Source: Escherichia coli (GTDB taxonomy: Bacteria > Pseudomonadota > Gammaproteobacteria > Enterobacterales > Enterobacteriaceae). Taken from it: 64,000 nt of DNA. The stretch is from assembly GCF_003018235.1 (NCBI RefSeq), contig NZ_CP027437.1; one strand, 5' to 3'. Below, piece by piece: positions 55,510-58,985 of this stretch. The translations under genes and the position numbers were made by a program. Numbering within the stretch: position 1 is the stretch's first letter; each line of letters opens with the position of its first letter. Under the pieces are notes generated by a model, which worked only from the letters and a program-made list of their open reading frames with translations, searched no databases and had not been told where the DNA came from.

Positions 55510-56697
55510 CTATATTGCATTTAAAAGGTCGTAATTATACGTATAGTCCTCTCTGGTAAAATATTGATTCTCTGAGTTATAAGCTTCATATGTATTATAT
55601 TTTACGACTTCAAAGCAATTGTCTGAAGAATTTTCGTCTTTCTCGAGTGTATTATCTGGAAGGAATTCCTCTGAGCTAGAGTCCTCTATGTTTAAATCTG
55701 TATTGTAATTAATTTTTGGATCGATTAGATAAGCATTTCCTTTGACGCTTTCATAATCTTTAATGATTATATCGATGTAATAATCTATTTTTTCTGATGA
55801 GAATGCTTTCATCTCTGGTAATCTAATTCTGTTCAAGTAATTGTTAATTTTCGATGAGCTTTTATATATTTCTTTTGTTAATTCATTTTCTAATTCATCT
55901 GTTAGAGTTGCTCTTGGTATAGATTCTATAATTGCAAGTCTCATAATTTTTAATTGTTCTTCGGTAATATCCCCAAGCGCATTTAAACAACTTTCGACAA
56001 GCTTAATTTTTTCTTCAGAATACATATCGCTAATGCTTGTTATAACAGGCGTTATTTTTAGTAAATAATCCCAGGAGATTGTGGCGTTTTGTGTTGAACT
56101 AACGAAATTTACCTGAAACATGTTGGCATTAGTAAAATCTGTGTCATCCAATTTAAAAGGATTTAAAATTGTATTGGCCATATGTTTATCTGTAAAATCA
56201 TAAAGTTCTAAATCGACATTCCGTAAGTCCAGAGAGGATAGATCAACTATACCTCCAGTCCCACAACTAAAGATTACGTTCAACCTCCTGATTTCATTGT
56301 AAATGTCTTTCAATGGGCAATTAACATTGATATTGCCTGTGGATATTTCCTGGTTTTTTAACGGTTCATTAATGGTAAGTTCACAGGTATTGTCTGATCG
56401 TTGAATAATTCGGGCGTTATAACCTAAAAAATCCAGACGAAGAGACGAGTCATTATAAAGAATTACATTTTGTAAGTACGCTAATTCTTTTTGAAAATCA
56501 CCAGTGATAATGCATTTCCCACCTGGTTGTAACGCGTTAAGTAAAGTGACCATTTGAACAGAGGTCTGTTTTAGTTTTTCTATGCCTGGTGCTAGTGCTT
56601 CGAGGTTATTTCCTATGGGGCTTTCAGGAAGATCATTCATTTTTCGACGGGCTAAATCACAACTAATATCATTACCAATTGATGAAACAGGGGACAT
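55510..56697 (-). CDS. yhaC: Uncharacterised pentapeptide-repeat-containing protein YhaC
   Basis: 395-aa ORF; very AT-rich; central run of pentapeptide-like repeats (DLSSLDLRNVDLELYDFTDKHMANTILNPFKLDDTDFTNANMF); position next to rnpB matches K-12 yhaC. Confidence 0.85.
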   Translation of the reverse strand: MSPVSSIGNDISCDLARRKMNDLPESPIGNNLEALAPGIEKLKQTSVQMVTLLNALQPGGKCIITGDFQKELAYLQNVILYNDSSLRLDFLGYNARIIQRSDNTCELTINEPLKNQEISTGNINVNCPLKDIYNEIRRLNVIFSCGTGGIVDLSSLDLRNVDLELYDFTDKHMANTILNPFKLDDTDFTNANMFQVNFVSSTQNATISWDYLLKITPVITSISDMYSEEKIKLVESCLNALGDITEEQLKIMRLAIIESIPRATLTDELENELTKEIYKSSSKINNYLNRIRLPEMKAFSSEKIDYYIDIIIKDYESVKGNAYLIDPKINYNTDLNIEDSSSEEFLPDNTLEKDENSSDNCFEVVKYNTYEAYNSENQYFTREDYTYNYDLLNAI

Positions 56698-56718
56698 TAT
56701 TTTATCCTTTATAAATAA

Positions 56719-57288
56719 TCAATAAAAATCATTATTAAAATGATCGGGTGAAAAAAAGAGAATTTGCCAACAATCTGAAGGAATGGCTGTTTTATTAAAG
56801 TACGTAGGGGGGGTTAAGATGGCTTCTTTTCGGGTGAATTTTGCACAATACTTAGAAATCGTCTCCTTAATATATTCCAGCTCTTTTTTATTGACGACTG
56901 AGCAAGTACATTGTTCACCAAAAGGTGCAAAAGTGCCTACATCTAATGTTTGTATGATGTAATCGTCATGTTCTCCTGTAGAAATATCTATGATGAATGG
57001 ACTCATATTTTCCGGTTGGATTCGGATCATGACAGAAGGAATATCGCCTTGATAGAAATTCAATGCAGTAATTGCAGATAATACTCTCCGCAGTTCATTA
57101 CTTATACTGTAAATTTTATTAACGTCATTGGTGGAGACAATTTCTGCAAACTTTCTTTTTACCGTCCAATAATCAATATTTCTATTGTGATTGTTAACCA
57201 CTGCGTGCATTGGCGGGATTGAAGGGTGAAAAATATGTGCAATTGGGAAGCCTTTCATTGATGCCTGCCTTGTCATCATGACAAACAA
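56719..57288 (-). CDS. yhaB: Uncharacterised protein YhaB
   Basis: 189-aa AT-rich ORF immediately downstream of yhaC on the same strand; start is uncertain. Confidence 0.75.
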   Translation of the reverse strand: MFVMMTRQASMKGFPIAHIFHPSIPPMHAVVNNHNRNIDYWTVKRKFAEIVSTNDVNKIYSISNELRRVLSAITALNFYQGDIPSVMIRIQPENMSPFIIDISTGEHDDYIIQTLDVGTFAPFGEQCTCSVVNKKELEYIKETISKYCAKFTRKEAILTPPTYFNKTAIPSDCWQILFFSPDHFNNDFY

Positions 57289-57513
57289 TAATAGATGCTT
57301 ATTTTCCTCGCAGGGTTCTTTCGCACTATCAAAAAACGCTCATTTACCCGGCGTTACAGTAAACGAAGCAACATTCTGTGGCCTACGCCGATCAAAAGCT
57401 CTGTGAAAATTTCCCTTGTTGTCTTTGTCTGACCTTATCGCGGCGACCAGCAATTATTCGTTTTGTGATCCTCAACACAAAATGCTATTCGTCACCTATG
57501 AGGGGAGAAGAAT

Positions 57514-57858
57514 TTATGGAAAACGATTGCATTCACAAAATGACGTCCTGTCAGAAGAGAAAAAGTTGACGTTAATCAATTGTTCGAGATGATCAATATT
57601 TGTATTCGAAATTTTAAAATATTGATAAAATAAATGTTTGTTCTCCAACAAATAGCGTGAAAAAATGTGACGTGCCGCATTATTTATCGCTGAAAATGAT
57701 TTATTTATAATAAAATTTGAGAACTTGCTCATTAAATTTAACTCAAAATTTGCCTGGTAATTATCCGGTAATTGCTTGAAATATGGTCTCAGCCCCTTTT
57801 TTGTATTAACCACATAACGAATGATGTTATCGCCATAAAATATGGTTATCCCCGTCAT
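57514..57858 (-). CDS. tdcR: tdc operon activator TdcR (ORF here is longer than I recall for K-12)
   Basis: ORF 57514..57870 divergent from tdcA, about 190 bp upstream; AT-rich; assignment is by position; boundaries uncertain. Confidence 0.45.
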   Translation of the reverse strand: MTGITIFYGDNIIRYVVNTKKGLRPYFKQLPDNYQANFELNLMSKFSNFIINKSFSAINNAARHIFSRYLLENKHLFYQYFKISNTNIDHLEQLINVNFFSSDRTSFCECNRFP

Positions 57859-58046
57859 TTTTTTTGACAAAAATCAGGGTTTATGCTGATTTTTATACTT
57901 TAACTTATTGATATATAAAGATATTTAATTGGAATAACGATACCATGGAAAGTATTGAAAGTTAATTTGTGAGTGGTCGCACATATCCTGTTCATTTCAT
58001 TTTGATACACTTCATGCCGTCAATGAGGTAATTAACGTAGGTCGTT

Positions 58047-58985
58047 ATGAGCACTATTCTTCTTCCGAAAACGCAGCACCTGGTAGTCTTTCAGGAAGTC
58101 ATTAGAAGTGGCTCTATCGGCTCGGCTGCAAAAGAATTAGGGTTAACTCAACCGGCCGTCAGTAAAATCATTAACGATATTGAAGATTATTTTGGCGTGG
58201 AATTAGTGGTGCGGAAAAATACCGGTGTAACATTAACACCTGCCGGTCAATTGTTACTCTCCCGTTCCGAATCCATTACCCGTGAAATGAAAAATATGGT
58301 TAATGAGATAAGCGGTATGTCTTCTGAGGCGGTGGTGGAAGTCTCATTTGGTTTTCCTTCATTGATTGGTTTTACTTTTATGTCCGGGATGATCAACAAG
58401 TTCAAAGAGGTGTTCCCGAAAGCGCAGGTTTCTATGTATGAAGCGCAACTGTCTTCGTTCTTACCGGCAATCCGCGACGGTCGACTGGATTTTGCGATTG
58501 GTACGTTAAGCGCAGAAATGAAGCTTCAGGATTTACATGTTGAGCCGCTGTTCGAGTCCGAGTTTGTGCTGGTAGCCAGTAAGTCCCGAACATGCACCGG
58601 CACCACCACGCTGGAGTCGTTGAAGAACGAACAGTGGGTGTTGCCACAAACCAATATGGGGTACTACAGCGAGCTGCTCACCACGTTACAAAGAAATGGC
58701 ATCAGTATTGAAAACATCGTTAAAACCGACTCAGTCGTGACAATTTATAATCTTGTTCTCAATGCTGATTTCTTAACTGTAATTCCTTGTGATATGACAT
58801 CACCTTTTGGTTCTAATCAATTTATTACTATTCCGGTTGAAGAAACATTACCTGTGGCACAATATGCCGCGGTATGGTCGAAAAATTATCGTATTAAAAA
58901 AGCAGCATCGGTTTTGGTGGAATTAGCCAAAGAGTATTCATCTTATAATGGGTGTAGACGAAGGCAATTAATTGAAGTTGGTTAG
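58047..58985 (+). CDS. tdcA: LysR-family activator TdcA
   Basis: 312-aa ORF MSTILLPKTQHLVVFQEVIRSGSIGSAAKELGLTQPAVSKIINDIE (LysR HTH). Confidence 0.95.
   Translation: MSTILLPKTQHLVVFQEVIRSGSIGSAAKELGLTQPAVSKIINDIEDYFGVELVVRKNTGVTLTPAGQLLLSRSESITREMKNMVNEISGMSSEAVVEVSFGFPSLIGFTFMSGMINKFKEVFPKAQVSMYEAQLSSFLPAIRDGRLDFAIGTLSAEMKLQDLHVEPLFESEFVLVASKSRTCTGTTTLESLKNEQWVLPQTNMGYYSELLTTLQRNGISIENIVKTDSVVTIYNLVLNADFLTVIPCDMTSPFGSNQFITIPVEETLPVAQYAAVWSKNYRIKKAASVLVELAKEYSSYNGCRRRQLIEVG

Follow-up and report, generated by a model that had tools for sequence, protein, structure and literature searches.

Taken as a whole, the 758 bp between yhaB and tdcA (positions 57289–58046) are best explained as the promoter region of the tdc operon together with, on the opposite strand, the open reading frame of tdcR, the length of which depends on the 5′ end that an annotator chooses. 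We give this account a probability of about 85%. The discrepancy in length is an ordinary annotation-boundary matter at the 5′ end of the gene and a known feature, visible in public records. The tdc operon is relevant to the use of serine and threonine in the gut. Here, the window denotes the complete stretch of 64,000 nucleotides of Escherichia coli DNA that was analysed. The spacer has a G+C content of 34.2% compared with 50.7% for the window, in agreement with an earlier sequence-only reading that described an AT-rich region of about 760 bp. In that reading the divergent frame was assigned to tdcR, and its length, which exceeds the roughly 72 codons given for the K-12 gene, was attributed either to a longer regulator in this strain or to a different boundary in the K-12 annotation.

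The tdcR frame lies on the minus strand (57514–57870) and is indeed open for 118 codons, from a TTG at 57870 to the stop codon TAA at 57514–57516. It spans 119 codons from stop to stop and has a G+C content of 30.3%. The first in-frame ATG is codon 5 (position 57858; ATG5) and gives a version of 114 amino acids (57514–57858), a GTG at codon 20 (position 57813) gives 99 amino acids, and the second in-frame ATG is codon 47 (position 57732; ATG47) and gives the version of 72 amino acids (57514–57732) that is annotated by RefSeq/PGAP and as b3119 in K-12. The earlier count of 114 codons is correct but had been attached to the second in-frame ATG, from which only 72 codons remain. The 46 codons upstream of ATG47 (57733–57870, minus strand) form an N-terminal 'extension' to which the difference in length is due and which overlaps conserved non-coding blocks of DNA. 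When the sequence is read directly, a good Shine–Dalgarno sequence is absent both at ATG5 and at ATG47. The case is a reminder that the longest open frame need not be the annotated gene, and the same holds for yhaB.

The identity of the frame is clear. The NCBIfam profile NF008507 ('transcriptional activator TdcR') is an equivalog of 72 positions with a curated cut-off of 100 bits. It matches the 118-residue translation with 165.7 bits, residues 47–118 aligning with profile positions 1–72, and the 72-residue form with 168.2 bits. The frame is divergent from tdcA, lies upstream of it and is located between tdcA and yhaB, as in the genomic definition of TdcR. RefSeq likewise annotates tdcR at the matches listed, and the original assignment was right.

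Alignment of the spacer with that of K-12 MG1655 gives 14 substitutions and no indels over 758 bp. The upstream stop, the TTG, both ATG codons and the stop codon are all present in K-12 as they are in the window, and K-12 therefore has the same 118-codon frame, as do all other intact copies from E. coli that were compared. Its tdcR gene (b3119, NP_417589.4; NC_000913.3 3267380..3267598) encodes 72 amino acids, in agreement with the length of roughly 72 codons given in the earlier reading. Because the extent of the frame and the position of the stop are identical and only the annotated start differs, the proposal of a longer regulator in this strain fails on the criterion that the earlier reading itself had set, and is refuted. 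The proposal of a different boundary in the K-12 annotation holds, with the boundary being the start (the internal ATG at codon 47) and not the stop. It is extremely improbable that the regulator became truly longer than that of K-12 through a change in sequence such as a lost stop or a frameshift: both flanking stops are homologous in K-12, and the only prior basis for this idea was the length of 72 codons given for K-12.

The choice of start can be followed through the databases. The frame of K-12 itself is on record under TdcR names as 114 and as 72 amino acids, and the name is carried by calls of 118/119, 114, 120, 99 and 72 amino acids. PGAP places a 219-nucleotide tdcR gene in 17 of 17 other E. 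coli records, one of them being a pseudogene with an internal stop, and the 114-residue call is used in thousands of GenBank E. coli records. The 72-residue translation of the window is also found exactly in E. coli records. Of 5426 complete E. coli genomes, 5392 have a match to the spacer, and every row among the matches listed carries a tdcR annotation. The best match among these 5426 genomes has 98.9% identity, and the exact spacer allele is therefore absent from that collection. Literature searches on the TdcR start site, b3119 and orphan genes returned nothing relevant. Schweizer & Datta are said to have reported a TdcR of 99 amino acids in 1989, and Hagewood et al. reportedly mapped the transcription and translation starts of tdcR in 1994; neither statement is used as evidence here.

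Comparison across Escherichia favours the 72-residue form. A scan with TdcA using one genome per species provided 64 loci. Only E. coli proper and Escherichia sp. MOD1-EC7003 have the 114-codon frame in intact form. ATG5 carries a mutation in E. whittamii, Escherichia sp. E1V33, 'E. coli' SCPM-O-B-8794, 'E. coli' E69 and E. albertii, and the extension is broken there by a 1 nt insertion at 57859 and a 1 nt deletion near 57803. ATG47 is kept in all Escherichia lineages compared except for E. albertii, where it is ATA, and in E. whittamii and E1V33 no start codon of any type precedes the ATG47 equivalent in the core frame. In the multi-genus alignment, the ATG5 and ATG47 triplets are poorly conserved in other genera. 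Since ATG5 and the extension are lost in sister lineages that keep ATG47, the 72-residue form is the only one common to the Escherichia species in which the frame is retained. From this comparison, we infer that ATG47 (57732) would be the start used in vivo.

For E. coli proper one may argue instead that the real product has 114 amino acids, starts at ATG 57858 and is annotated too short at 72, and we consider this unlikely. Part of its support also counts against our best explanation: ATG5 and the whole 114-codon frame are retained in 19 of 19 E. coli sampled (one with a premature stop further downstream) and in MOD1-EC7003. Within the frame, the extension is the least polymorphic part (4 of 126 nt), the length of the whole frame is unusual (p = 0.03) and thousands of records carry the 114-residue call. 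In addition, the predicted tdcR promoter is situated upstream of ATG5, so that ATG5 would be the first AUG of the mRNA, which counts against 72 amino acids. On the other side stand the loss of ATG5 and of the extension frame in the five lineages named above and the lack of a good Shine–Dalgarno sequence. All four polymorphisms in the extension are non-synonymous and the AlphaFold2 pLDDT is only 40–53 in the N-terminal part. Moreover, the conservation of the extension is independent of the frame and is common to genera that do not have it.

This last point follows from a multi-genus alignment of 62 Enterobacteriaceae spacer sequences, 55 of which are from non-Escherichia genomes without a tdcR frame. 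Codons 6–15 of the long frame coincide with the block GTTATCGCCATAAAATATGGTTATCCCC (GTTATC-N13-GTTATC; 57826–57853). It does not vary among any of the Escherichia compared and lies 221–224 nt from the tdcA ATG in Citrobacter, Salmonella, Kluyvera, Raoultella and Leclercia, all without an equivalent frame. This block is probably an upstream control element of tdc. The same alignment contains conserved blocks at 57859–57878, 57774–57786 and 57660–57672, as well as a conserved palindrome block at 57464–57482. The distances of blocks from the tdcA ATG are fixed across genera at 76–80, 221–224 and 581–584 nt, and collectively the blocks most likely represent upstream control elements of the CRP-dependent tdc promoter. 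The good conservation of the extension in E. coli thus stems from the non-coding DNA blocks on which it lies. An Rfam scan of 56500–58600 at E ≤ 1 yielded just a chance-level OmrA-B match (21 bits compared with a gathering score of 40), and the conservation is therefore not explained by any known RNA.

A tblastn search with the 118-residue frame returned matches in Citrobacter, Salmonella, Kluyvera and Enterobacter that start at residues 1–3. Those in Citrobacter, Salmonella and Kluyvera first looked like support for the long form. This support was rejected because the frames are broken, the start codons are missing and the similarity is confined to the conserved DNA blocks.

The tdc promoter is marked by a CRP site, TGTGAGTGGTCGCACA (57968–57983, plus strand), which matches 9 of 10 half-site positions and is located 64–79 nt upstream of the tdcA ATG. 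Its conservation at 76–80 nt from the tdcA ATG extends over 63 loci, the window among them. A CRP-dependent promoter is taken here to be one with a site of the type TGTGA-N6-TCACA at an activating distance from the transcription start; the site itself is confirmed as real at the sequence level and its distance class is inferred. A second CRP-type palindrome, TGTGATCCTCAACACA (57464–57479, plus strand), lies 35 nt beyond the tdcR stop, 504 bp from the first site when measured from centre to centre. Its half-sites and its distance of 581–584 nt to the tdcA ATG are kept in at least 25 loci from several genera, with the N6 spacer being variable. These two sites are the only matches to TGTGA-N7-CACA in the 64 kb window, where 0.69 are expected.

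The region had also been credited with dependence on IHF. A match to the IHF consensus, TATCAATAAGTTA, is present at 57901–57913 on the minus strand, about 140 nt upstream of the tdcA ATG, and its TTGATAT core is conserved in other genera; a further match is found at 57615–57627. Such matches occur in the window at about the chance rate (four compared with 2.8 expected).

Shimada et al. (2014; PMC3946193) reported that RNA polymerase and H-NS bind in this spacer and also predicted a K-12 tdcR promoter, TTTAAA-16-TATAAA. The equivalent in the window is TTTATA-16-TATAAA (57892–57919, minus strand), which as a prediction only would be positioned upstream of all candidate starts. A promoter scan gave no σ70-like site on the tdcR strand at the threshold of the tool, and a terminator scan gave no terminator.

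Within the spacer, 70 bp between the CRP site and the tdcR frame (57890–57959) vary most: 19 of 70 sites are polymorphic in 19 E. coli, compared with 2–6% in the stretches on either side. The tdc operon is recurrently hit by adaptive IS5 insertions in mouse colonization, and an IS5 insertion and an A-to-C change (K-12 positions 3265168 and 3265132, respectively) rise in frequency in E. coli colonizing old mice (PMC7518454). By approximate coordinate conversion these positions correspond to about 57967 and 58003 in the window. On this approximate mapping the IS5 insertions fall just upstream of the CRP site and hit neither version of tdcR, and the A-to-C change falls in the presumed −10 region of the tdc promoter.

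The adjacent gene tdcA (58047–58985, plus strand, ATG at 58047) is the first gene of the operon and encodes its LysR-type activator. Its product contains the HTH_1 (PF00126, 2.7e-19) and LysR_substrate (PF03466, 1.2e-33) domains expected of a LysR-type regulator. TdcA is nearly invariant: other Escherichia lineages show no more than 6.5 non-synonymous differences over 936 nt. On the other side of the spacer, yhaB (56719–57288, minus strand) shows a start ambiguity resembling that of tdcR: the longest frame, from TTG 57288, has 189 amino acids and the RefSeq gene, from ATG 57258, has 179. Together with yhaC it is absent from the rnpB–tdcA spacer in E. whittamii, Citrobacter and Enterobacter and is a remnant in E. 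albertii and in six of 19 E. coli sampled. YhaC (55510–56697) is encoded by an unusually variable gene and has 87.8% identity to K-12 YhaC.

The tdcR frame bears no mark of selection at the protein level. Estimated by NG86 counting and not by a likelihood model, dN/dS of the 72-codon core compared with other Escherichia lineages is 0.54–0.93 in frame and 0.27–0.97 in the off-frames; for five of these lineages the values are 0.54–0.76 and 0.40–0.97, respectively. In the same genomes the tdcA control gives 0.01–0.03 in frame and 3.9–8.7 off-frame, with dS of 0.08–0.50. The polymorphism sample of 19 E. coli genomes contains 12 DNA haplotypes of tdcR, which encode 12 distinct proteins. Polymorphic sites in the core are distributed over codon positions 1, 2 and 3 as 10, 7 and 4; if 60% were expected at position 3, the probability of four or fewer would be 0.00016. 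Polymorphic codons change the amino acid in 15 of 19 cases in the core and in four of four in the extension (19 of 23 in total), one of them creating the stop of the PGAP pseudogene. Internal stops are thus found in one E. coli and, additionally, in SCPM-O-B-8794, and the start is lost in E. albertii. Neither dN/dS nor codon positions reveal a frame-specific synonymous excess in tdcR of the kind left by purifying selection, and across the 62 Enterobacteriaceae spacers there is no coding signature in any frame on either strand.

Searches at the protein level agree with this. A Pfam scan of the tdcR frame finds no domain, and a PDB profile search with TdcR finds no relative (best E = 0.98). The AlphaFold2 model (mean pLDDT 41, pTM 0.31) is too poor, and for this reason no fold search was made. 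A DNA-binding domain of the helix–turn–helix kind is recognized in TdcR neither by sequence nor by fold. An exhaustive HMMER search of 1.84 billion representatives gives no credible TdcR homologue outside Escherichia; apart from two sequences, its matches are fragments from that genus. One sequence of 117 amino acids (P0052) aligns end to end with the 114-residue TdcR at 30% identity and was rejected as a homologue; it resembles TdcR translated from reads with A-to-G conversion and is probably an assembly artefact in public data. A weak repetitive match (P0056) was set aside.

Among 5000 dinucleotide-shuffled versions of the 758 bp, 3.0% contain an open frame of 119 codons or more and 52% one of 73 codons or more; the tdcR frame exceeds chance only modestly. 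The absence of indels is no evidence of coding, because genera that lack the frame also preserve the spacing of the blocks. On the sequence comparisons made here, TdcR would at best be a young, weakly constrained, Escherichia-restricted peptide.

These observations raise the possibility, which we regard as somewhat doubtful, that neither length of tdcR is maintained as a protein-coding gene and that the frame is an Escherichia-specific one inside a conserved regulatory spacer of about 580 bp. The positive effect reported for 'tdcR' would then come from the DNA itself, for example through multicopy titration of H-NS or another factor or through deletions acting in cis, or else an RNA would be responsible. 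The dN/dS values, the codon-position counts, the internal stops, the missing homologues, the poor model and the shuffles all point in this direction. Against it, 18 of the 19 E. coli sampled as well as E. whittamii, E1V33 and E69 have an intact frame, and the full 119 codons are somewhat longer than chance predicts. Young lineage-specific proteins may also function at dN/dS near 1, and the data are NG86 counts and 19 genomes. The literature as cited in PMC9426608 has TdcR as a trans-acting activator of tdcABC, and PMC4797297 gives it as the single member of a transcription factor family. It is because the published genetics, as cited there, report a trans-acting activator that we keep the proposal tentative. 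Equally tentatively, a frame that evolves like non-coding DNA in a spacer of fixed length, which is conserved in Enterobacteriaceae without the frame and has a CRP-type site on either side (504 bp apart), may mean that the 'tdcR' effects are due to cis-regulatory DNA or to a very young de novo peptide.

RefSeq, GenBank and the transcription-factor lists consulted, in which it has stood for decades, label TdcR a 'DNA-binding transcriptional activator' despite the lack of codon-level constraint, of a domain and of a homologue outside the genus. The contrast between this label and the DNA blocks beneath it that are conserved across genera is worth a short note to curators, and if tdcR were not a real gene, the model of how the tdc operon is regulated would have to be revised. 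Only two points seem to us worth passing on: the missing coding signature of tdcR and the conserved architecture of the spacer with its fixed distances.

Under the preferred reading, a promoter spacer with tdcR on its opposite strand and a 5′ end set by annotation, the window compares with known loci as follows. The rnpB–tdcA spacers of Citrobacter, Salmonella, Enterobacter, Raoultella and Kluyvera have the CRP site, the GTTATC block and the distal palindrome in common with the window, with no intact tdcR-like frame and no conserved start codons. Unlike the window, these relatives lack yhaB and yhaC, so that the spacer runs to rnpB and is 686–1118 bp in length. K-12 has tdcR at the same locus with the same neighbours (yhaC-yhaB-tdcR/tdcABC…), the same frame and the same stop. 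Six point substitutions, all non-synonymous, separate K-12 from the window within the frame and nothing structural does; the two proteins differ in four residues in the 72-residue part and in five over the 118-codon frame. The 114-residue 'DNA-binding transcriptional activator TdcR' of GenBank (P0071, 19 contigs) is letter for letter the 114-residue translation of the window, and the chosen start codon is the sole difference between these records and the RefSeq model.
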